A stretch of DNA of 64,000 nt from a virus (taxonomy: Duplodnaviria; Heunggongvirae; Uroviricota; Caudoviricetes). The stretch covers positions 1-64,000 of IMG/VR virus record IMGVR_UViG_3300046787_000353; one strand, 5' to 3'. This document shows positions 2,401 to 51,629 of the stretch, one piece after another. Both the position numbers and the translations under genes were made by a program. The notes under the pieces are model-generated. The model was not told where the DNA came from, made no database searches, and saw only the letters and a list, made by a program, of their open reading frames with translations. Positions within the stretch are counted from its first letter, which is position 1, and the number at the start of each line of letters is the position of its first letter.

Positions 2401-2718
2401 TTATACCAATTTTGCTAATATTCTTTTCAGTTCATTCACAAATTCGGATACCGAGTTCAAATTTTTGGTGATTACCATCGTTTCGGTTTGATATCTAGCC
2501 CCATATATCCACATATAATATGAACCAGATATTAGATTCCTTCCTAATACGATTGGTAAAGAATCCAAATCGGTATATTTTTCATACCCTTCTTTTGGAT
2601 AATAGAATATATAATAATCATCGTGTATTTTCACACGTTCTATACTCTCACCATTGCATAACATTAGTTTGATATTCTCTACGTTCTTTATTGTAAGCAT
2701 ACGGATTTGTTTTATCAA
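2401..2718 (-). CDS. hypothetical protein (105 aa)
   Basis: Minus-strand ORF. A promoter-like ctgcaatatacaaaat motif sits just upstream at about 2730-2750. Confidence 0.5.
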   Translation of the reverse strand: MIKQIRMLTIKNVENIKLMLCNGESIERVKIHDDYYIFYYPKEGYEKYTDLDSLPIVLGRNLISGSYYMWIYGARYQTETMVITKNLNSVSEFVNELKRILAKLV

Positions 2719-21973: not shown

Positions 21974-23203
21974 CTACCACACAATAGTATCTTCGGTCAC
22001 ATCATCTTTTGCTTCGTTAAAAAGTTTAGATTCTGCTTCATCATTTTTAATATACTTTTGAACCAACTGCTTCATAAATACTCTCTCTGAATCCAATCCT
22101 CCATCATTAGAGAAGTAAGGTAAGATAGCGATATCAGCTGCTTCTAACAATGTAAATCCATCGTAAATCAAACCGGCTGCTTCTACGTTAGTACGAGTAG
22201 ATACCGTAGTTGATACCTTGCTGGCATCAGTCTTAATCAACTCACGAGTAGTTGAAGCGATTTCAGCCAAAGCGTTTAATGAATACTCATCAGCTTCTGG
22301 ATAGATAAGTTTCAACAAATCAAACTCTGATTGTTTATCTAACAAATCCATCTCAATAGTTACAAATCTGTCCATCATAGCACGGTCCATAATACGAGTT
22401 GATGTATATTCATTACCGATGTTAGCCGTAGCGATGAAAGTAACTCCACTTGCTACACTTACAATTGGAGAACCCTCAGCCTCATCCAAACGTAAGTAAC
22501 GTTGCCCCTGGTCTAACACAGTCATTAAGATATTCCATGCTTCTGGGTGAGCTCTACTCAACTCATCTAATAAGATGATAGCGTTAGGAGTTTTGATTGC
22601 TTTAACGAATGCTGATTCACTAAAGAAAGTTCCTTTATCTTTATCGAAGTGAGTGTTACCGATTAAGGTTGCTCTCGGGTCTTGCGTTGCTCCTAAGTTG
22701 AAGTAGAAATCAGGTCGGTTAAGTGATTTAACCAATGATTGAGCCGCCAATGTTTTACCACAACCAGTTGGTCCACACATCATAATGTTTTTACCACGAA
22801 CTGCTGAACGAAGTAAATACTTCCACTTCAATGGTTCGATGAACAATCCTTTAGGTTTCAACTCCTGTCCGTTTTGGTGGATGAAATCTTTAAGAGCCTC
22901 ATGTGTATCAAATGATTCGGTAACAGAATCAGCGGTGTTTTCGGAAGTTGGTTGAGCCAATGTTTTGAACTCATCCATCTCCACTAATTTGTAGGTTAAT
23001 GCCCCACTTTTACCAACGTAACCTCTAATTGCTTTACCTTCAGCTTCTGCTGTTTTCATACGAGCTTTAGTAACTCCGGCTACTTTGGCGTAAGTTTTAT
23101 CATCCGTAGTTAACATAGCGAATGAACGGCCAATCTTAATAACTTTGTAAATTTCATTTGTGAAACCTACGTTTAAATCTTTTTTTGTTTTGGTAGTACT
23201 CAT
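21974..23203 (-). CDS. MoxR-family AAA+ ATPase (CbbQ/NirQ/NorQ/GvpN-like; CobS-like in phages)
   Basis: Walker A MMCGPTGCGKT, a Walker B LLDELSRA motif, and ATANIGNEY...RIMDRAMMDRF. Confidence 0.85.
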   Translation of the reverse strand: MSTTKTKKDLNVGFTNEIYKVIKIGRSFAMLTTDDKTYAKVAGVTKARMKTAEAEGKAIRGYVGKSGALTYKLVEMDEFKTLAQPTSENTADSVTESFDTHEALKDFIHQNGQELKPKGLFIEPLKWKYLLRSAVRGKNIMMCGPTGCGKTLAAQSLVKSLNRPDFYFNLGATQDPRATLIGNTHFDKDKGTFFSESAFVKAIKTPNAIILLDELSRAHPEAWNILMTVLDQGQRYLRLDEAEGSPIVSVASGVTFIATANIGNEYTSTRIMDRAMMDRFVTIEMDLLDKQSEFDLLKLIYPEADEYSLNALAEIASTTRELIKTDASKVSTTVSTRTNVEAAGLIYDGFTLLEAADIAILPYFSNDGGLDSERVFMKQLVQKYIKNDEAESKLFNEAKDDVTEDTIVW

Positions 23204-23540
23204 AATAGTATCTGTTTTAAAGTTTAATATGTCTCTTAATTTTATTCTGCAATATACGAATTAATTTCCAATTGCACAAGCTTTTTGTGAATTATTTTTA
23301 TAAAATTTATTCATTTCCTTTTCAGCCTGATTCAATAGTTTTTGTGATTCTTTCTTATTCCCTTTGAATAATAACTCCATCGCTTTGATGGTCAATTGTC
23401 TGTGTTTTGGTAGTTTGTTCATCTCTTATCTTTTATTACTTCGTAAAGATAGTAAATATTGTCCGTATTGCCAAATATTTTAGCAAATTTTAACAAAATT
23501 TTAACAAAAAAGTCGTAAGTAATTGATATAGAAAGAGTTA

Positions 23541-23565
23541 TGAAAAGGGAGGGTTTTCCCTCCCA
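23541..23565 (-). terminator. rho-independent terminator after 23586..25871
   Basis: gggaggg/ccctccc hairpin. Confidence 0.55.
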
Positions 23566-23585
23566 ATCCATAGGGCTTTCCGAGC

Positions 23586-25871
23586 CTAAGATTTTCTTAA
23601 AAACATCTCATTCATTGTTTTGGCAACTTCGAACATATTCTCCACGTTAACACTTTTTGCATCACGTCCGTAACATTGTTCGAATAATCTCCAAGCAGAT
23701 GTGTTTTTTACATCAGTATATTCACTAATAAAATATGATAATACATTAATACCAGCCGATTGCATCTTCTTAATTTGCTTATTAGTATGTTTAGCGGCGG
23801 CAGGACCTGTATATTGAATACCATCTCCACCATTACTAATTGAATAACAAGGTTCACCATCGGAGAAGTTCAAGAAGTATGAATCAGAATCATTAGTAGC
23901 CGGTATCAATTGCTTCTGAATTGCTTCGAAACACAAACCTTCCGGTGTTGTATTATTTGCTCTTAGGATACCCATATAACGAGCGAACGTTCTAAAGTTA
24001 CCTTTACGAGAATCATATACAACAGCGATGTAAGGTAAAGAACGAGAACCACTATCGGTAGAACGAATGGATACCTGAACGTTGATGTTACGAGCCATTT
24101 CACAAGCCTTAACAATAGCCACAGTCGATGTGATTGCTTTCTTAATCTTAGAACCACTCATTGAACCAGAGTAGTCAATTGAGATATGAAGATTGGCTTT
24201 CTTATATTGGTCAACTTCTTTAGTGAAGAAAACGTTCTCGTTATCATATCCAAGCGAAGCAACCATTCTACCATCAATCTTACCTTTAGTAAGGCGAGAG
24301 TAAACTGTTTCTCTACTTTCGTTACGAACTTGCAACTTCTTACCTAATATAGTTCCTAATGTGATACCTCTACGAACCTCATCTTCTGCCCACTTTTGTG
24401 GTTCACCACTTTTCCAATCTACCGAACTGAATGGAAAATCTTTATCTGAAATCATTTTATCGGTAAGGTTCTTAACTACAATACAATCAACACCTTTGTT
24501 GTGTCCGTATCCATCTGGGTTGTAATCATTACCAACACGAACTAATTCAGTATCCGAAGCGGAGATGTTTTCTAACTTCTCAATTTCAGTTTTAGAAACT
24601 TGCTTTTTCTTAATCTTACCATCTAAAAACTCTTTTTGCTTTTTGATTTTGTTATCAAGTTGTTTCTTTTGGTTACCTGTCATTGATTGTTTACCTTTAA
24701 CATCACCCTTAGCCTCACCAGCGGGAGCTTCTGATGAATCTGATTCAGAAGGCGTTCCTTCCACATCACCGGCATCCATATTGATACCACTTCCATTACC
24801 ATCGCCATCGGATTCTCCATTAGATTCTCCACTACCTTCACCATCTTCACTTTCGGTGGTTTCACCATCCGATTCACCATCGCCTTTATCTTTTTGCTTT
24901 TGGCCGCCAGATGCGTCTGGCAATTCAATATGATTTAAGATTTCGGTAACAACATCAATTGAAAGATTAAATGCATCTTCCGTTGATTTCAAACGTTCGA
25001 TGTTACTTAAATTGATTAATCGATAAATTGCTCTCAAACCTTTTAATTTAGAAAGGTCAGTTTCTTCATTGTGAAGGTTGATGATTCTAAACATATAAGA
25101 ATCGATAGTTTCATCGGTATATTCATCCGAAGCGATTCCCTTAGTAATCATCTTATCATTAAAGTAATGGTCATACATCGATGAATAGTAATCTCTATAA
25201 CCAGGTGCCGAATTGTAGATGTATTGGTCAATACGTCTGTCCTCAATCCAGTTGGTTAATTGTCCAACTAATGTTTCAATCTCTTTATTGATGGTGATTT
25301 TTGAACCAATCTTACCTGATTTCAAAAACATCTCAGCGAATCCAGCTTTGTATTTTAAACCATCAATTTTTTGTAAAATAGCGTTATCAATATAGTCATC
25401 ACTATATGGGATTGGATATCCATTCTCAATTGCTTCTTTGTTTTGAATAGCCGCATTACTTCTAAGATATCGAATGGTATCGGTAATACTACTCATTTCA
25501 GATAACAAACTAAAATCGGATAACACAATGTGTGAACCCTCATGCAATGCTAAACCAACGGAAACATCAAAGTTATCATCCACATCAGCGGAAAGGATAA
25601 CTCTCTTACCATCAGTCATTGAATCTGATTTGGTAGCGAATGTAACCGGAATACTTTTTTGTGTAACAATTTGAACGAAATTGGAGATAGCTCTCCTCGT
25701 TGCTGATAACTTATACAAGTCATTTGTTTTCTTAAATGCCGATAACTTATCTTCATCTAAATCACTATACTTGTCTAAGTAATCGTATGATGTATTATAC
25801 TCATCATACCAATATGAACTAGCGGATTTCTTTTGAACACCACCACTTTTTAATCTGTTGTACCAACTCAT
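23586..25871 (-). CDS. von Willebrand factor A (vWA) domain protein with acidic low-complexity tract (CobT-like partner of the MoxR ATPase)
   Basis: MIDAS motif DYSGSMSG (DxSxS). Central region DKGDGESDGETTESEDGEGSGESNGESDGDGNGSG. Adjacent to the AAA+ MoxR gene. Confidence 0.8.
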   Translation of the reverse strand: MSWYNRLKSGGVQKKSASSYWYDEYNTSYDYLDKYSDLDEDKLSAFKKTNDLYKLSATRRAISNFVQIVTQKSIPVTFATKSDSMTDGKRVILSADVDDNFDVSVGLALHEGSHIVLSDFSLLSEMSSITDTIRYLRSNAAIQNKEAIENGYPIPYSDDYIDNAILQKIDGLKYKAGFAEMFLKSGKIGSKITINKEIETLVGQLTNWIEDRRIDQYIYNSAPGYRDYYSSMYDHYFNDKMITKGIASDEYTDETIDSYMFRIINLHNEETDLSKLKGLRAIYRLINLSNIERLKSTEDAFNLSIDVVTEILNHIELPDASGGQKQKDKGDGESDGETTESEDGEGSGESNGESDGDGNGSGINMDAGDVEGTPSESDSSEAPAGEAKGDVKGKQSMTGNQKKQLDNKIKKQKEFLDGKIKKKQVSKTEIEKLENISASDTELVRVGNDYNPDGYGHNKGVDCIVVKNLTDKMISDKDFPFSSVDWKSGEPQKWAEDEVRRGITLGTILGKKLQVRNESRETVYSRLTKGKIDGRMVASLGYDNENVFFTKEVDQYKKANLHISIDYSGSMSGSKIKKAITSTVAIVKACEMARNINVQVSIRSTDSGSRSLPYIAVVYDSRKGNFRTFARYMGILRANNTTPEGLCFEAIQKQLIPATNDSDSYFLNFSDGEPCYSISNGGDGIQYTGPAAAKHTNKQIKKMQSAGINVLSYFISEYTDVKNTSAWRLFEQCYGRDAKSVNVENMFEVAKTMNEMFLRKS

Positions 25872-34590: not shown

Positions 34591-36129
34591 CTATTTTAAT
34601 CTTTCTTTAATTTCAGTTAAGGTCGTTTGATTGTAGAATGTACCATCTTTATAGATTGTTTGTAAAAACCCTCTACCTTCACCCTCCCAAGTTACTTTAT
34701 CAAATAACACATATTCACCATCGGTATTTTTATCAACCCACAACAAGCCTGTTGCTGATTTCTTAGTTCCATCATCAGTAATAGGGTCTTTGAAGATTTC
34801 TCTACCAACACCATCTACTTCAACATAAGTTGCTTTCATTGCGAATCCAAAAGTATCACGAGTGTTATACTGATATGTGAATGAACCAATGCCCAATACA
34901 ACGTTTGTAGATGCGAACCCTTTTGCTTCTAACCGAGCGCAGATTTCATTCGCCCGTCCAATTGTGATTGAATCACCATAAATGGCTCCAATGTGAGAGT
35001 CTAAAACTTTGTAACCTTGCTCATTGATTGTTCCACCAAATACATCCCAAAGTAATTCAATAACACCTTTATATTGATTAGGAGTAACTACCTTTCCTTC
35101 ATTGTATTCTAACTCCCCATAAAAATCTACTAAATAATTTCCATTTTCATCTTGTAGTTCCTTATAATCGGTTCTATTCCAAGAATGACCTCTATCACCA
35201 CATAAAATATCAATTGGGTCACCACTATCAGGTCTGATTACCAATTTACCATCTCTTGCTAAGATTTCTTCTTTAAGAGTAACGATATGCTCGGTACATA
35301 CCTTCCATAAATCCCACGTATCACTTACAACTGATAAAATACCTTTTGGATAAGTTTCTAATAATCTACGGAATGTCCCAACCTCATCATCTTTACTTCC
35401 TGCACACATTACACTATGTTCGGTTGCGTTTACTGAACCTCCAACGAATCCTTCTTCACCATAGAACTTTCTTGCTCCGTAAATAGCAGGTAAACTATCA
35501 GTTCCACTAAATGATGTTAAGTGTCCTAATCCACTAGCGATTGTAGCTTCAACTGAATCCATACCTCTCATTGAGAAGTCATGTCCTTGCCAATCAACAA
35601 ACCAACCCTTTTCAGCATCGGTCTTTTCTTGCCACTTAGTTAATACCTTACGATAGGTATGTGCAATGGTAGCAGATGTCATTGGTTTCCATAGTAAATT
35701 GGAAATGATTGTTTCTAAGTAGTTTGTTACCCAATAGAACTCTGGCAATGTATTGTAGATTGTTAATACAGGTACTTTCATTGGAACTAATGTACCTTCT
35801 TCAATTGCTTTTACATTGATAGGTAAATAACCTAAATCATGCAATTGTTCAAAATGAGTAACATCATAATCAGTTCCTAAATATAATGATAATTCACGTT
35901 TCATTTCTCCACAAACTTCATCTTTTGGTTTAGAGAAAAACTCCTTCTCAAATGCTTCGTGGATTTGTTTCATAATCATTTGTTGTCCAAATGATACTAC
36001 GTTATCACACCCAGTTGGTGCGTATTTGTTACTTCTCGGTGTGAAGTTAGAATATACTAATGTAGTTCCTTGCGGGTATTGTTGGTGGTGACCTGTTTTG
36101 TAACCATCTGTCAGTAATAGTGGATTCAT
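34591..36129 (-). CDS. nadV: Nicotinamide phosphoribosyltransferase (NAMPT/NadV)
   Basis: MNPLLLTDGYKTGHHQQYP, HDFSMRG and VIRPDSGDP motifs are shared with NAMPT. Confidence 0.9.
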   Translation of the reverse strand: MNPLLLTDGYKTGHHQQYPQGTTLVYSNFTPRSNKYAPTGCDNVVSFGQQMIMKQIHEAFEKEFFSKPKDEVCGEMKRELSLYLGTDYDVTHFEQLHDLGYLPINVKAIEEGTLVPMKVPVLTIYNTLPEFYWVTNYLETIISNLLWKPMTSATIAHTYRKVLTKWQEKTDAEKGWFVDWQGHDFSMRGMDSVEATIASGLGHLTSFSGTDSLPAIYGARKFYGEEGFVGGSVNATEHSVMCAGSKDDEVGTFRRLLETYPKGILSVVSDTWDLWKVCTEHIVTLKEEILARDGKLVIRPDSGDPIDILCGDRGHSWNRTDYKELQDENGNYLVDFYGELEYNEGKVVTPNQYKGVIELLWDVFGGTINEQGYKVLDSHIGAIYGDSITIGRANEICARLEAKGFASTNVVLGIGSFTYQYNTRDTFGFAMKATYVEVDGVGREIFKDPITDDGTKKSATGLLWVDKNTDGEYVLFDKVTWEGEGRGFLQTIYKDGTFYNQTTLTEIKERLK

Positions 36130-37563: not shown

Positions 37564-38706
37564 TTAGTGAGAATCGCCTACATTGTGTTTCTCTCCGTAG
37601 ATTAAATAATCAGGGTTGATTACTTTAGCTACTTTTTGTCTTTCACCTGTATAGTATTTGATTACAATTCCTTCCTCTGGCACTTTAGAACCTTTGATGA
37701 AGTTGTTGAATACAAAACTATCTTGTACATCTTGCGACCATTTGCCAAAATACAATATTGGAACGTATGGTAAATCTAAAAATTCAAATGTGCTATTAGC
37801 ATTCATTGGTGTCATATATTTACCATCAACCGTAATATCGAATCCAGCAAAATCAATAGTATCTAATCCATACTCATAGTTCTTTTGAACCCCTTTACCA
37901 TAGATTTCACCATAGATTACAAACCCACTACCAATTTCTTCTGGACTATATGTAGCCCTTACGATTTGCCATAACTTACGTTTGATATCTAAATCATTCG
38001 CAATGTTATACCAAACGTTTGTATCATAGAAACCTTGTGAGTCTGAACCTTTCTCCACATTGTGAGAACCAACCACATATTCGTAGTCAATCCAACCGTC
38101 GGCCAATCCAAAGAATTTCTTAACTTTATCAAAGAATGATAATTTGGTTTTTTTACAAATACCATATCTTGCATTAGTTCCGTGAATCTTACGAGTGATT
38201 TCCACAAAGTCGTCTTCGGTAAACATTCCAGCTACGTTTTTCAAATTCGGAAATTTGTAGTAGATATGGAAGTTTGGATTATCTTTGTATTTAATCTTTC
38301 TACCACTTGCCAATTGAATTTGTTTAACAGGTGGTTCAAATTTACTAACACCAAAGATATCCATACAATCGCTACCTTCTTTCAAATCCCAATCTCCCAT
38401 AGTAGTTCTACCATGTAAGTATTTATGTGGAATGATTAAACATTCTGAATATACACCTCTTAACTTTACAGTCCTAACTCTATTACCTTTACGAAGATAG
38501 CTTGTTACACCCATCTCTTCCGATAAGCCTTCCGGAATTACAGCATCGGTGGTTGCGATGATTACATTATCACCTACGATTTGTTCACCTTTTTTGCTAA
38601 TACAATTCCACCCACCTGCTACGATTAACTCAATGTTATCTGCTCCTGGGATTTCTCTTACTTCGTTTACTTTTGCAACGAAACAAACTGAATTTTGATT
38701 TTCCAT
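37564..38706 (-). CDS. ATP-dependent RNA ligase, Rnl2 (T4 RnlB)-like, with N-terminal tRNA-binding-like OB region
   Basis: Nucleotidyltransferase motif I RKIHGTN equals T4 Rnl2 EKIHGTN. Residues 10-50 (AKVNEVREIPGADNIELIVAGG...EQIVGDNV) resemble the Myf/EMAP tRNA-binding domain pattern. Confidence 0.75.
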   Translation of the reverse strand: MENQNSVCFVAKVNEVREIPGADNIELIVAGGWNCISKKGEQIVGDNVIIATTDAVIPEGLSEEMGVTSYLRKGNRVRTVKLRGVYSECLIIPHKYLHGRTTMGDWDLKEGSDCMDIFGVSKFEPPVKQIQLASGRKIKYKDNPNFHIYYKFPNLKNVAGMFTEDDFVEITRKIHGTNARYGICKKTKLSFFDKVKKFFGLADGWIDYEYVVGSHNVEKGSDSQGFYDTNVWYNIANDLDIKRKLWQIVRATYSPEEIGSGFVIYGEIYGKGVQKNYEYGLDTIDFAGFDITVDGKYMTPMNANSTFEFLDLPYVPILYFGKWSQDVQDSFVFNNFIKGSKVPEEGIVIKYYTGERQKVAKVINPDYLIYGEKHNVGDSH

Positions 38707-42184: not shown

Positions 42185-42318
42185 AAATTCTCAAGCATTC
42201 TACTTCCCGCAGCACGAAATTGTATCTTACTTAGCCCATCGTTGGCGGTATGGGTACTTGAGTTATTGTAAATGAACAAAACCTATTGTTCTTTTGGCTT
42301 TTTACATAAGCCCATTTG

Positions 42319-42390
42319 AGCAGGTATTCGGACTCGAACCGAAATCTCCGACTTGGAAGGCCGGAACACTAACCATTGTGCTATACCTGC
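42319..42390 (-). tRNA. tRNA-Gly (TCC)
   Basis: Acceptor GCAGGTA/TACCTGC, anticodon loop CTTCCAA, T-loop TTCGAGT. Confidence 0.8.
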
Positions 42391-43630: not shown

Positions 43631-43703
43631 CGGGACCGACGGGAGTTGAACCCGCTCCATACTCCGTGACAGGGAGATATCTTAACCGTTTGACCTCGGC
43701 CCC
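43631..43703 (-). tRNA. tRNA-Asp (GTC)
   Basis: Acceptor GGGGCCG/CGGTCCC, anticodon loop CTGTCAC, T-loop TTCAACT. Confidence 0.75.
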
Positions 43704-46969: not shown

Positions 46970-47010
46970 AAAACAAAAAACCCCTAACCGATTTGTATTC
47001 AGTTAGGGGT
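46970..47010 (-). terminator. rho-independent terminator upstream (on the minus strand) of the main tRNA array
   Basis: cccctaac/gttagggg 8-bp stem followed by UUUUUUUGUUUU on the minus strand. Confidence 0.65.
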
Positions 47011-47232
47011 TCTTAAATATTCTATTATTTAATACATTTACATCATATCTCCTGCTATAATGTCCCCTAACGTAGTATCTTGCTTGTCCAAATTACTAAA
47101 CACACAAATCCCTGCCCATGTTCTTTCTAACATCGGTAGATAATTGGCTGTATGTATTGTTAAGGTTTTCATTGCTAATATATATGTAAAAATTTATTAA
47201 TCGTTTGTTTTTGTTAAAATAATTTAATTTTT

Positions 47233-47304
47233 GAGCGAAACCAAGGAATCGAACCCCAACTTGCAACCTGGACGGCTGCCGTGCTACCACTACACTAATC
47301 TCGC
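47233..47304 (-). tRNA. tRNA, nominal anticodon TCC (Gly-like), with G instead of U at position 33 and GU-rich T-stem; atypical
   Basis: Acceptor GCGAGAT/GTTTCGC, D-arm GTGT-AGTGGTA-GCAC, anticodon arm GCAGC-CGTCCAG-GTTGC, T-loop TTCGATT. Confidence 0.5.
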
Positions 47305-48397
47305 GTTTTGAGCGGTGCGAAGGTTTTGCTCCCCCTCTACCTATCTGGAATGATAGATGTGCTACTATTACACCAATACCGCTTATATAAGGATGAGAAT
47401 ACTCCTTTTTACGAACCAACTTTAGAAAGATTATTGTTTCCTTTCATTTCCACTCCCTTTTGAGAAGTATCAATCCAATGTGGGTAATTATAGATTTACC
47501 AATCTTTGAGTTTCAAACTACTCTCTTCCTACTCCTTTTCTTCAACCCTGCCGAGCTGATTCACACTTGCGATGTTAGAAACCTTTCAAAAGAATCACAG
47601 ACCTCTTGCGGAGGTATCGTGGCAGGGAACAACTCCCTACTATGTACACACCTTTCATCTGAAACTGGCAAACACTTATGCTTTATGTTTATCTTATAGA
47701 TTTTTCATCAAATTGAAATTATAAAGTTTTGTGGTCGTAGATGGGTTCAGGTAGCGGTTTGCCTCTAGCTCCGTTATCTTTTGAACAACAGAATACTAAA
47801 CTACCCGATGTGTTATCTCTAACACCATATTTCAAGTCAACTTCACTACCCACTCTTTGGTGAGATGTAGGTAAGGATAATAACAACACCACTTGTTCTT
47901 TATCATACCTTTCGGTTTTAAGTCAACTCTTATACTGAATCACGCAATGATAAGGAGAGATTAAGTCCTTACTTCTTGCAATAATTCTATGGATTATTCT
48001 TTTTGGTGTTCCCACCTCAACTGAACTATCTACTTAGCCCAGTCATCTCCCCACTTTCTTTACAGTGTCACCCTCAATACTAAAGGGGAAATGATATTCC
48101 ACTTGCCTACTCAAGTTCATAACCTTACAGGGTTACAAACCGCAGGATAGTTAACCAACTACCCCACTTTATCCTACTTTCGTAGTTTATTTCACGACCA
48201 TAGGCGGCCGTTGTTACACTATGTAGAACGAATCTACTATGTGTAATCTTTTCAATAATTTAAAGAACGTTTTGTTTCACAAATATACGAAAACTTTTTC
48301 AAACTTCCAAATATTTTTTAAACTTTTTTTATAAATCTAACTACCCGAGTATCTTTCATCACCTATAAGGGTTTACATCATCTTTACTTTTGTTTTA

Positions 48398-48436
48398 CAA
48401 ATATACGAAATATATTTTACATTTCCTAATATTTTT
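48398..48436 (-). promoter_or_regulatory. promoter, class 2; the middle of three tandem promoter-like repeats (about 48280, 48398, 48513) that face the ORF-free 47305..48260 region
   Basis: caaatatacgaaa ... tttacatttcctaatattttt units. Minus-strand -7 TATATTTG. Confidence 0.5.
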
Positions 48437-48571
48437 TAAACTTTTTTTTGTTGAACATTTTCGGCTATGTTTACTTACACCATCTATACTTCCTACTTCT
48501 GAATCAACTTTGTAAATATACGAAAACATTTTTACATTTCCTAATATTTTTACAAATATTTTTAATCTTTG

Positions 48572-48644
48572 TTGCGGGAGAGGGATTCGAACCCCCGACC
48601 TTATGGTTATGAGCCACACGAGCTACCACTGCTCTATCCCGCTA
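48572..48644 (-). tRNA. tRNA-Met (CAT), second copy, with unpaired A1:A72
   Basis: Anticodon arm TGTGG-CTCATAA-CCATA, T-arm GGGGG-TTCGAAT-CCCTC, D-arm GAGC-AGTGGTA-GCTC. Confidence 0.7.
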
Positions 48645-48690
48645 TATATCTTAAAGAACGTTATTCTATATATTCATATTTATATATATA

Positions 48691-48725
48691 CAAATATACG
48701 GAAAAAATATTAAATTTACAAATAT
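48691..48725 (-). promoter_or_regulatory. promoter upstream of tRNA-Met(CAT) 48572..48644
   Basis: Minus-strand TTTGTAAATTTAATATTTTTTCCG-TATATTTG with a 20-nt spacer. Confidence 0.5.
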
Positions 48726-48888
48726 TTTTTAAAATAATTTTAAGGTATCCGGCTTTATAGTTTCGTTTCACTCTTATTGAAACTAATATTTAGAGAGTCA
48801 CGTAGTCGGTTTTATTACTACTGGCTTCAACCTTTCAATTATTATAATACAAATATACAAAATAAATTCGATATATCCTAGTCTTTTT

Positions 48889-49872
48889 TTATTTTTTTAT
48901 TGCTTTTTTTACAATATTTGTTGCAGCTTGTTTAACCGCATGGTTATCATCGTATTTAAGTGCCGATTTAACCTTAATCATCTTACCAGTATCAGGGTTT
49001 TTAACCATTTGGTCTAATACATCTTTAGGTAACATTGATTTTAATTTCATATCGTTTGATTTTGCAGGTGCTTTTGGTTCGAATTTTAATGGCTCATCTT
49101 TCACAGGATTATGCTTTAATGAAAATGGATTCCATAAACCTCTACTATCTACTTCCTTCGAAGTTGATGGTGCAACTTTAGCATCTTTCTGATGTGGATA
49201 CTTTGTTGGGTTATATGGTTCTAAATCCGATGTGTTTACATTACCATCCGCATCAGTCTTAGTTTCACCTCTTTCATCCGCCAATCTTACAATACCAACT
49301 GTATTAGTTTTTTTATTGTAAACAACATCATCTACATCATATAATGGCTCTTCTGCCTTTGGTTCGAATGTAAATACTTGCCCACCTTTTAATTTACTAT
49401 ACCCTTGTGCAATTTTACCAGGTGAGAACTTTCCAATGTTAAATGATTCTCCTGATTTTGAATCAATGAATGTAGCTTCTCCTTTTGCTTTAGTTTCTTC
49501 ATCGGCGAACAATACACTATCTTGTTGATATTTGTTCCCCAATTTCAATACATCATCCCTTGTTATGTTTGGGATGAATAGAGATTTCTCTTGAGTTGGA
49601 ACTTTCATATCATCCGGACAATCCTTATATTCAGTATCAGGTTTTCTACATTCCTGCCACATGCCATCTACGTGAACAAACCCATATCCCATACTTCTCA
49701 AGTCGGCCTCAAGTTGTTTGTTTCTTTGTTTGTTTTCAGCAGGTGTTAATTCACCTCTACTAGCAGTTACTACACCCCAATTTTTCATTTTAGGGTTGGA
49801 AACAACGTGTTGGTAAATTCTACCTAATGATGCTTCGTTTAAATCGTATCTATTTTTAACTGTAAAGTTCAT
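48889..49872 (-). CDS. hypothetical Lys-rich protein (327 aa)
   Basis: Long minus-strand ORF. Confidence 0.55.
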   Translation of the reverse strand: MNFTVKNRYDLNEASLGRIYQHVVSNPKMKNWGVVTASRGELTPAENKQRNKQLEADLRSMGYGFVHVDGMWQECRKPDTEYKDCPDDMKVPTQEKSLFIPNITRDDVLKLGNKYQQDSVLFADEETKAKGEATFIDSKSGESFNIGKFSPGKIAQGYSKLKGGQVFTFEPKAEEPLYDVDDVVYNKKTNTVGIVRLADERGETKTDADGNVNTSDLEPYNPTKYPHQKDAKVAPSTSKEVDSRGLWNPFSLKHNPVKDEPLKFEPKAPAKSNDMKLKSMLPKDVLDQMVKNPDTGKMIKVKSALKYDDNHAVKQAATNIVKKAIKK

Positions 49873-50624
49873 TATTTCTTAATTATATTTGCGTTTTTTA
49901 ATATTCTTGCATTAGTTACCCATTGTTTACCAATATTGTTTTTCAATGGTTCTCTAATAAATCCATCTACGGATTTTTGGATTTGCGATGTGATGTTATT
50001 ACCTGTATTGGAGTTATCAACGATACGGAAGTTACCACCAAATAAACTTTGGAATGCTCCTAAGTTATGTTGACACTCTTTCCATATTTCACTAACCAAT
50101 GTTTCTGGCAATACTCTATCTCTTTTTGAATTACGAAATTGAGCCACTTCCAATGAAGTATTAACAAACACCATAAAGGTATCGTATCCCAATTCCTCTG
50201 CTCTTTGCTTCTGCTTTCTGATTTTATTAACATCATCACCAGTCCCATCGATAATCATACCCAATCTACCGGCTTCGTAAAACTCTCTAGTCTTTTGTGT
50301 TACGGCTTTAGCTTTTTCTCTAACACCATTCTTATCTTTGGTAATAAAATCCCAAAGCTCAGGTTGAGTTTTTTCTATTTGAGCTAAATCTTTAGGGTTA
50401 ATTCCACTCTTCTTTAATTGAGCTTCGAATGCCGTATCCGAATTTATAGATTTTAAACCACTTGCTGAAAATGATGATATTCCCTGAATACCAAACAAAT
50501 CACCAGCTACTTTGGATTTACCACTACCAGGTCCTCCTGCTAAGAATATACATTTAAGAATACCCGGGTCATCGACACCCTCATTCAGCATACTATTACT
50601 AAGTAAGTCTTTTAACTTTATCAT
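49872..50624 (-). CDS. P-loop NTPase / nucleotide kinase-like protein (zeta-toxin/AAA_33-like fold)
   Basis: Walker A FLAGGPGSGKS. The N-terminus MIKLKDLL is shared with the next two genes. Confidence 0.5.
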   Translation of the reverse strand: MIKLKDLLSNSMLNEGVDDPGILKCIFLAGGPGSGKSKVAGDLFGIQGISSFSASGLKSINSDTAFEAQLKKSGINPKDLAQIEKTQPELWDFITKDKNGVREKAKAVTQKTREFYEAGRLGMIIDGTGDDVNKIRKQKQRAEELGYDTFMVFVNTSLEVAQFRNSKRDRVLPETLVSEIWKECQHNLGAFQSLFGGNFRIVDNSNTGNNITSQIQKSVDGFIREPLKNNIGKQWVTNARILKNANIIKK

Positions 50625-51223: not shown

Positions 51224-51629
51224 TGGTGGAGGTGGAGGGATTCGCACCCTCGTCCAGAATACGGCCTAATAAACCTCATTCACAAGCTTATTTAGTTTTT
51301 CTTAACTAACAAAATAAATAGTTTCTAATTCCCCGTTGCTACTATTAAACTTAGATGGTTCTATTGTTAAGGATAATTACCAAAAACACTTCCTATTTCT
51401 TTTCGGATAGAAATCACACCTGGTTTCACATTCTTTTTTACCTCACGATGTGTGCGAGGAAGGATTAGGCTGCTACAGCGTAATCAGCACCTACGAAAGA
51501 CATAGCATCTTCGAAGGTCATTGTAGATAATTCTACTGCGTTTATTGTTCGATAGGTATTTAAGGATTTCCATCTAACCCTGCTTGCAATTATACTAAAT
51601 CATCGCTCCTGTCAAATCTAGTCACCCCC
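51224..51629 (-). ncRNA. ssrA: tmRNA (ssrA-like transfer-messenger RNA), about 406 nt, CCA encoded
   Basis: Minus-strand 5' end GGGGGTGACTAGATTTGACAGGAGCG aligns with E. coli GGGGCUGAUUCUGGAUUCGACGGG. An internal frame reads ...GCT GAT TAC GCT GTA GCA GCC TAA, i.e. ...ADYAVAA-stop (compare the ...ENYALAA tag). The 3' end GGACGAGGG-TGCGAAT-CCCTC-CACCTCC-A-CCA aligns with E. coli GGACGCGGG-UUCAACU-CCCGC-CAGCUCC-A-CCA. The 5' GGGGGTG pairs with the 3' CACCTCC. The region has no ORF. Confidence 0.8.

Follow-up and report, generated by a model that had tools for sequence, protein, structure and literature searches.

A full-length GOLLD RNA gene predicted in the tRNA island of an uncultured large phage

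What does a phage encode in a block of about 950 base pairs (bp) that has no sizeable open reading frame (ORF) on the strand of its neighbours, lies inside an island of tRNA genes and is faced by several promoter-like repeats? The block in question is part of 64,000 nucleotides (nt) of DNA from a virus of the Caudoviricetes (IMG/VR record IMGVR_UViG_3300046787_000353, positions 1 to 64,000), and this whole stretch is called the window below. An earlier reading of the letters, the original prediction, had proposed for positions 47305..48560 a structured non-coding RNA of the minus strand, for instance an intron remnant or a ribozyme, or else a cluster of micro-ORFs. The best explanation overall, with a probability of about 96% in our judgement, is a full-length gene for a GOLLD RNA in the tRNA island of an uncultured large phage. 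It is a new member of the GOLLD family and not a new kind of element, and as such it is already explained.

Scanning the whole window against the Rfam models with Infernal, a check that had been proposed together with the prediction, found GOLLD (RF02032) at 47808..47390 on the minus strand. The match scores 292.3 bits with an E-value of 1.5e-82, above the gathering threshold of 150 bits, and it covers model positions 1-416 of 416 without truncation, with two non-canonical pairs as the only ones flagged by cmscan. The RF02032 model covers the conserved 3' half of GOLLD only, and for the extent of the gene we used the env-38 construct studied by cryo-electron microscopy, whose sequence is given in the supplement to Kretsch et al. 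2025 (PMC12286853). The local alignment has 73% identity and joins window positions 48209 to 47390 with env-38 nt 3 up to the end of that RNA; the env-38 sequence used has 814 nt against about 831, and its residue numbering is therefore unreliable. Since the Rfam model is limited to the 3' half and the alignment with env-38 runs from end to end, we place the gene at about 48211..47390 on the minus strand, where it reads as a full-length GOLLD RNA gene of 822 nt with two domains.

Homologs of this gene are found in other viral contigs of IMG/VR, the largest of which has 333 kb. At least 119 of these contigs match a degenerate pattern of the 3' domain, 117 of the loci match the window GOLLD by blastn, and 80 of the 117 are full-length with 780-835 nt. 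All 80 open with the motif GGCCG..UAUGGUC. Homologous regions that code for protein or that lack the element would have spoken against a structured RNA, and in these 80 viral contigs the non-coding structured element is kept. The closest relatives among the matches listed are L090, L071 and L010 (the L-numbers label IMG/VR loci), each about 82% identical to the window GOLLD.

The structure is supported by covariation over the entire length of the RNA. We aligned 41 non-redundant copies with less than 92% identity (alignment A1), for which RNAalifold predicted 190 pairs, 147 of them with compensatory double changes. Paired cells make up 96.9% in this alignment versus 39-43% with the partners shifted by 1-3 columns; the shifted registers have covariation scores of 0.08-0.12 versus 0.621 for the predicted pairs, and none of 500 shuffles reaches the observed values. 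As the prediction used this very alignment, one of these controls is biased towards the structure; despite this caveat the count of pair types and double changes goes far beyond what relatedness alone gives. About 35 helices are distributed across the whole 820 nt. Twenty of them lie in the 5' domain beyond the Rfam model, nearly all with compensatory changes, and helices 21-35 of the 3' domain are backed by such changes as well. The window copy forms 188 of the 190 consensus pairs, as many as or more than most homologs do. The covariation and the pairs kept show a conserved structured RNA over all 820 nt, with the window copy as an intact member of the GOLLD family. The structured non-coding RNA of the minus strand that had been proposed is thus borne out, by the match to the full Rfam model and by the covariation across the 41 homologs.

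The features of GOLLD that could be tested are all present, namely the model score, the helices of the 3' domain with their pseudoknot, the size and two-domain layout, and the setting in a phage among tRNA genes. Nt 1 to about 420 of env-38 are the homologous counterpart of the 5' domain (48211..47809), which opens with GGCCGCCUAUGGUC, as env-38 does. The strands of the long-range pseudoknot, CAGUUUCAGA and UUUGAAACU, are complementary in the window copy, and the A-rich linker (about 47680..47745) is unpaired and aligns poorly. A hairpin with a GAAA loop, CCGAAAGG, is found at 47908..47915, where the pairwise alignment places the GAAA-loop hairpin GGGGAAACCCC of env-38; by inference from this alignment it would be the conserved loop L11a named by Kretsch 2025. 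The loops CGCAA and CGGCA are present too, and we take them to occupy the positions of L21a and L21b. Together with the 73% identity to env-38, these retained loops are the ground on which a cage of this RNA may be expected.

The block had also been described as richer in guanine plus cytosine (GC) than its surroundings and as containing many local hairpins, and both statements hold in part. GOLLD has 38.6% GC versus 34.1% for the window, 26.0% for the promoter zone 48212..48900 and 27.9% for 47000..47232, so there is real but modest enrichment. It is a property of the RNA, as the whole 47305..48560 span has 34.8%. One of the two hairpins given as examples, gtagaacgaatctac, is the tip of a hairpin in the predicted leader. 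The other, ggcggccg, does not fold into a separate hairpin; in the first GOLLD helix it forms the 5' strand and pairs with a partner about 100 nt downstream.

Among the known GOLLD RNAs, env-38, from a marine metagenome, is the one to which the window copy was aligned. It forms a protein-free D7 14-mer cage that is 380 Å across and has the linker inside (Kretsch 2025, Nature 643:1135, PMC12286853; PDB 9MEE), with the 5' domains as caps and the 3' domains as rings (PMC12286853). The window copy is like env-38 in its 5' start (GGCCGC..UAUGGUCG), its two domains, its A-rich linker and its 3' end (GUAUUCUCA.CCU), and both are downstream of a tRNA-Met, env-38 being described as "downstream of Met-tRNA" (PMC12286853). 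It differs from env-38 by 27% divergence, by several helix tips that are shorter or longer, by a deletion of about 17 nt around the hairpin equated with L11a, and by the tRNA-like element that follows it. The RF02032 family of Weinberg et al. 2009, as represented in papers citing that work, has a phage setting beside tRNAs, as in the window. The 5' half in the window is of the env-38 ("lake/marine") type, while the GOLLDs of Lactobacillales, Streptococcus and Mycobacterium are chromosomal or prophage-borne. The GOLLD of Streptococcus agalactiae (PDB 9L0R, a dodecamer; 9LMF, a decamer of the 3' domain) shares the 3' domain and the neighbourhood of a tRNA array; it is without P9, P11a-c and P21b, and forms 10- and 12-mers (PMC12990946).

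The relation between GOLLD and tRNA takes different forms in the family. The linker sometimes embeds tRNAs (PMC12286853), as in Mycolicibacterium with its tRNA-Phe in the J13/15 linker (PMC12990946), whereas in the window a tRNA-like gene abuts the 3' end. None of 81 full-length copies has a tRNA inside GOLLD; tRNA or tRNA-like genes abut the 3' end instead. ROOL (rumen-originating ornate large RNA, RF03087-type) resembles GOLLD in its large size, in its place near tRNA islands of phages or prophages and in its assembly into an RNA-only nanocage (PMC12286853). It is unrelated to GOLLD in sequence and secondary structure, and the Rfam scans of the window did not return ROOL. Both RNAs may just be transcribed together with tRNAs (Weinberg 2017). 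The expression of GOLLD goes up during phage lysis (PMC12286853), and papers of 2025-2026 give no established biological function for it (PMC12286853, PMC12990946). The features of the locus are collected in Table 1.

Table 1. Position and strand of the GOLLD gene and its flanking features in the window
Feature	Positions	Strand	Remarks
Full-length GOLLD RNA	47390..48211	minus	env-38 alignment; 80 IMG/VR loci; 188/190 consensus pairs
GOLLD 5' domain (variable "cap", env-38 type)	47809..48211	minus	outside the Rfam model; alignment A1 columns 1-470
GOLLD conserved 3' domain, with A-rich linker and pseudoknot	47390..47808	minus	cmscan RF02032
Predicted 5' leader	48212..48275	minus	hairpin 48214..48246; motif AACGTTCTTTAA at 48260..48271
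Promoter-like repeat P1	48270..48330	minus	-35 TTGGAA 48310..48305, 17-nt spacer, -10 TATATT 48287..48282; A/T-rich upstream tract
Promoter-like repeat P2	48388..48448	minus	TAGGAA-N17-TATATT, -10 48405..48400; 87% identical to P1 over 61 nt; exact core motif
Promoter-like repeat P3	48503..48563	minus	-10 48520..48515; repeat, core motif and consensus
Promoter-like repeat P4	48681..48741	minus	repeat copy upstream of tRNA-Met
Promoter-like repeat P5	48840..48900	minus	repeat copy upstream of tRNA-Met
tRNA-Met(CAU) upstream of GOLLD	48571..48643	minus	ARAGORN and Rfam, 63.1 bits
Non-canonical tRNA-like element	47311..47382	minus	starts 7 nt past the GOLLD 3' end; proposed RNase P handle
Atypical tRNA-Gly(UCC)	47233..47304	minus	37.9 bits; G33, potential C32-G38 pair
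Strong intrinsic terminator	46976..47014	minus	16-bp stem, U tract; would close the predicted unit
Promoter family members	5199, 7430, 26589, 36151, 37487, 42041, 44382, 48279, 48397, 48512, 48690, 48849, 52342	all minus

The three promoter-like repeats noticed before are present as copies of a 61-nt direct repeat, 72-87% identical to each other, and they belong to a stack of five with two further copies upstream. The core of the repeat, TTTCGTATATTTGT, occurs 15 times in the window with at most two mismatches versus 2.09 expected, and 14 of the 15 are on the minus strand, which is the gene strand. Thirteen copies share an extended consensus made of an A/T-rich tract, AAAATATTtGGaAAT, 13 nt and TTTCGTATATTTG, which reads as a -35-like TTGGAA or TAGGAA, a 17-nt spacer and a -10 TATATT. 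Most members of this family, whose 30-nt consensus recurs 14 times in the orientation of the genes versus 2 expected, are directly upstream of ORF starts or tRNA genes, and the surroundings of tRNA-Met and GOLLD have a stack of five within 600 nt. By manual count P1 and P4 agree with the sigma-70 hexamers at 9 of 12 positions, and P2 and P3 at 8 of 12. P1-P5 may be stacked copies of a general sigma-70-like promoter of this phage, with their activity inferred from the repeat family. The high expression suggested by the original prediction may be expected from this stacking only. Between the promoter array (48900) and 47014 the minus strand showed no terminator-like site.

As the -10 of P1 ends at 48282, a leader of about 64 nt is predicted between the promoter and GOLLD. 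Its hairpin has a folding energy of -10.9 kcal/mol and a z-score of -2.28 in RNAfold. It is kept in 8 of 9 aligned sequences (the window and seven relatives; L004 differs), with a compensatory change from C-G to U-A. The 12-mer AACGTTCTTTAA occurs exactly twice in the 64 kb, in this leader and at 48651..48662 just before tRNA-Met, both on the minus strand, and variants of it are conserved at the same place in L004, L027, L065 and others; it may serve as an operator, in processing or as part of the leader. We also observed that the segment AUAGGUGAUGAAAGAUACUCGG (about 48345..48370, minus strand, between P2 and P1) is conserved in L010, L065, L027, L002 and L109. In those relatives it sits between a single promoter and the GOLLD leader, which suggests that P1 was inserted or duplicated in the lineage of the window and that AUAGGUGAUGAAAGAUACUCGG belongs to the ancestral leader. 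Another piece of the P2-P1 spacer, CGGGTAGTT, was considered as a duplicated GOLLD fragment and rejected; its 9-mer match is within chance and the repeat search did not report it.

At the 3' end of GOLLD there are two tRNA-shaped elements in a row. The one next to GOLLD scores 23.2 bits versus the RF00005 threshold of 29 and is not called by ARAGORN. It folds as a cloverleaf with an anticodon loop AUUCCA of 6 nt (or 8 nt), a T-loop AGCAAAA and a D-loop without GG, and has neither the T-loop nor the D-loop consensus; given the score below threshold and the abnormal loops, we call it tRNA-like and not a tRNA. In L071 and L010 the element has 93-94% identity to that of the window, against only about 82% for their GOLLDs, and its position is held by a genuine tRNA-Gly(UCC) in L090 and also in L065, where it is at +11. 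The second element is the tRNA that the original prediction had called atypical, and it is a real tRNA-Gly(UCC). Its anticodon loop C-G-UCC-A-G has G33 in place of U33, the latter being near-universal in tRNAs. L090, L065 and L110 keep G33, and their anticodon stems have changed in a compensatory way. At 42318..42390 the minus strand encodes another tRNA-Gly(UCC), a canonical one with the loop CUUCCAA, which makes the copy beside GOLLD redundant.

Past the GOLLD 3' end the family has two recurrent arrangements, a tRNA or tRNA-like gene and an intrinsic terminator. A tRNA starting +7 to +17 nt past GOLLD was called by ARAGORN in 14 of 77 loci, and several more were missed by this program. tRNA-like elements follow GOLLD in the window, L071 and L010, and also in L023 and L027 from reading the downstream sequence. 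An intrinsic terminator is found 27-100 nt downstream of GOLLD in at least 37 of the 77 loci. For the clade of the window we infer that a cut by RNase P at the tRNA-like element would make the 3' end of GOLLD. Such punctuation by tRNAs is familiar from mitochondrial transcripts and from MALAT1/mascRNA, where RNase P forms the 3' end. By analogy, the tRNA-shaped element directly 3' of a long structured RNA could set its 3' end through RNase P in the window as well; it differs in not having the canonical T-loop and D-loop features. We also observed in L027 (about 2648..2700, plus strand), L004 and L050 that the sequence past GOLLD looks like a truncated tRNA, a "minihelix" of acceptor stem and T-arm with GGUUCGAUUCC, which is consistent with a minimal RNase P handle.

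The following picture of the locus could be drawn from these data. Transcription would start at up to five stacked sigma-70-like promoters (AAAATATTtGGaAAT-N13-TTTCGTATATTTG), P1-P3 directly upstream of GOLLD and P4-P5 before tRNA-Met, and would give a single transcription unit with tRNA-Met, GOLLD, the tRNA-like element and tRNA-Gly that ends at the terminator 47014..46976. The GOLLD 3' end would be freed by RNase P, which would cut where the tRNA-like element begins, 7 nt past GOLLD; in other family members an intrinsic terminator would take the place of this release. The RNA would then fold with its 5' domain as cap and its 3' domain as ring and, by homology with env-38, may assemble without protein into a closed homo-oligomeric nanocage; the cage would have about 14 copies, and the A-rich linker would face its inside. 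Its role may be in lytic infection and related to tRNAs or translation, which is speculation from published hypotheses. The most likely of these, again as speculation, is the encapsulation or sequestration of cargo that is tRNA-sized or ribosome-related.

Several points weigh against parts of this picture. The expression, processing and assembly at this locus are predictions from its sequence. A generic sigma-70 scan gave 7 sites versus 9.3 in shuffles and hence no enrichment, so that the promoter evidence is the extended repeat family and not the hexamer matches. The tRNA-like element, with its score below threshold and its loops off consensus, may be a poor substrate for RNase P. The oligomer number varies in the family, with 10-, 12- and 14-mers on record (PMC12990946), and a 14-mer here would be an extrapolation from 73% identity. 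The lytic role of GOLLD in tRNA or translation matters is itself speculation.

Could the segment instead code for one or more small proteins, with the RNA structure being incidental? Mechanical ORFs of 30-79 amino acids (aa) do exist on both strands. The minus strand has no ORF of 60 aa or more inside the block, as had been stated; the longest within 47420..48394 has 57 aa (47719..47892), and the longer ones at 47096..47419 (107 aa, TTG start) and 48395..48619 (74 aa) only clip the edges and run across tRNA, tRNA-like or promoter sequence. The plus-strand ORF that had been seen to overlap the block is there too (47460..47699, 79 aa), together with two more of 50-51 aa. However, the segment homologous to the 79-aa frame is open throughout in none of 40 aligned homologs, with a median stop-free stretch of 45 aa, and no ORF position is conserved among these 40, which speaks against the proposed micro-ORF cluster. 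The substitutions track the covariation of base pairs, with double changes at 147 pairs, and not a codon pattern, and the Rfam match is far over its threshold; we consider a coding segment extremely improbable. We give just as little credence to the idea that the tRNA island harbours what is left of a group I or II intron, or a ribozyme of another known class. Large structured RNAs beside or inside phage tRNA genes are often group I introns, and it is from this general knowledge that the idea draws its appeal. Yet GOLLD and tRNA are the sole Rfam families that reach threshold in the region, and a scan of 47000..48900 in E-value mode found no intron or ribozyme family above noise, the other families being noise only (SpR08 and plastid untranslated-region motifs, E > 1). 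There is no insertion in a tRNA or an ORF, the flanking genes are intact, and self-splicing or self-cleavage is not known for any GOLLD. A decaying, non-functional GOLLD relic that merely still scores is very unlikely. The neighbouring tRNA-like element does look degenerate, and the phage lineage is known from metagenomes only, but 188 of 190 pairs are intact, the full model is matched without truncation, and the promoters and the conserved leader hairpin are retained.

The remaining alternative accepts the GOLLD and concerns what it does. GOLLD might be a decoy or sponge for tRNA-directed enzymes such as host anticodon nucleases, RNase P and other tRNA-processing or defence factors, and not a container, with the tRNA-shaped modules at its 3' end as bait. 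Two tRNA-shaped elements with abnormal anticodon loops directly 3' of GOLLD would fit this idea, and so would the higher conservation of the tRNA-like element (93-94%) than of GOLLD (about 82%) in L071 and L010, the canonical tRNA-Gly(UCC) already present at 42318..42390, and the RNA ligase and kinase-like ATPase of the tRNA-repair kind encoded in the window. On the other hand, in most of the family GOLLD is followed by a plain terminator and has no tRNA-like module, so the module is not essential to GOLLD function in general; recent recombination could explain the higher conservation of the element, and no experiment ties GOLLD to nucleases. We hold the decoy to be unlikely. It is similarly doubtful that in this clade GOLLD is the head of a conserved module with translation-incompetent tRNA mimics at its 3' side (the element with the 6-nt loop and the G33 tRNA-Gly), tethered or released, as bait or cargo. 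If true, this would be the first genetic hint of GOLLD cages acting on tRNA-directed host factors such as anticodon nucleases and tRNA-processing enzymes. We see only a small chance that the tRNA-shaped 3' module has a function within the GOLLD system; it would otherwise be a handle for processing or a duplicate in decay. The full-length GOLLD gene, with the tRNA-like element as its proposed processing handle, is the reading that we keep.

The neighbourhood of the gene is that of a phage with a large tRNA set. ARAGORN called 25 tRNA genes, all on the minus strand, and the Rfam scan at gathering thresholds gave 25 tRNAs and a transfer-messenger RNA (tmRNA). In 12 further loci, too, GOLLD has a tRNA-Met upstream of it, at a distance of 93-490 nt. 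The full order in L090 is tmRNA, tRNA-Met, GOLLD, tRNA-Gly(UCC) and then Asn-Val-Tyr-Phe-Lys-Pro-Ile-Trp, and other close relatives on contigs of 180-200 kb have most of this order. The tmRNA of the window (51224..51629, minus strand) scores 80.1 bits in Rfam versus a threshold of 47 and was not called by ARAGORN; its tag, read from the alignment, is AVELSTMTFEDAMSFVGADYAVAA. Syntenic tmRNAs were called in L090, L071 and L010 with nearly the same, unusually long tag, and the tags of other relatives differ. An Rfam tRNA of 52.1 bits at 43631..43703 (minus strand) was missed by ARAGORN and is probably a tRNA-Asp by synteny with L071, where tRNA-Asp(GUC) adjoins tRNA-Arg(UCU). Between tRNA-Gly and the terminator there is an ORF of 44 aa (47038..47172, minus strand) with no obvious ribosome-binding site, for which the alignments of the relatives stop short; it is probably not a gene.

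The PHROG and Pfam hits in the window mark a phage as well, and the genes named below are all on the minus strand. Directly upstream of the promoter array, 48889..49872 has a domain of the S-adenosylmethionine-lyase family (PF23780, 47 bits), and its product is a possible anti-restriction SAMase. The next gene, 49872..50624, encodes a zeta-toxin/AAA_33 kinase-like ATPase with a weak polynucleotide-kinase PHROG hit, and 37564..38706 encodes an RNA ligase (PHROG 968, 1e-54); the ligase and the kinase-like ATPase beside the large tRNA set are hints of a tRNA-repair capacity. We also found NAMPT at 34591..36129 (1e-196) and a pair of CobS/CobT-like AAA and VWA genes at 21974..25871. The best tblastn hit of the AAA/CobS-like protein is Microcystis phage Mel-JY01 at 55%, too distant for assigning a host.

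Outside the viral contigs of IMG/VR the searches returned little. No match to the env-38-type 5'-domain pattern was found in 185,579 GTDB species genomes, and a scan of GTDB with the 3' motif gave 30 contigs of metagenome-assembled genomes with no close relative among them. Searching 50,697 deposited phage genomes with blastn and megablast found no relative of the locus, the matches being to tRNAs and one of 119 nt in Acinetobacter phage vB_AciJM_313.

The ORF-free block of 950 bp is thus a textbook GOLLD that any Rfam scan would annotate, and not a novel element; what is mildly novel about it is confined to the 3' end, with its conserved, non-canonical tRNA-shaped module. What the locus adds is a complete GOLLD of the env-38 type with defined flanks, namely stacked putative promoters, a conserved hairpin in the leader, a tRNA-like element at the 3' boundary and, further on, a terminator. 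It also adds a syntenic cassette of tmRNA, tRNA-Met, GOLLD, tRNA-Gly and a tRNA array that is common to several large uncultured phages. GOLLD is among the largest RNAs of bacteria and phages without a known function, and a locus with a predictable transcription unit and predictable processing signals offers a concrete construct on which its assembly, its release by RNase P and its link to tRNAs may be tested.

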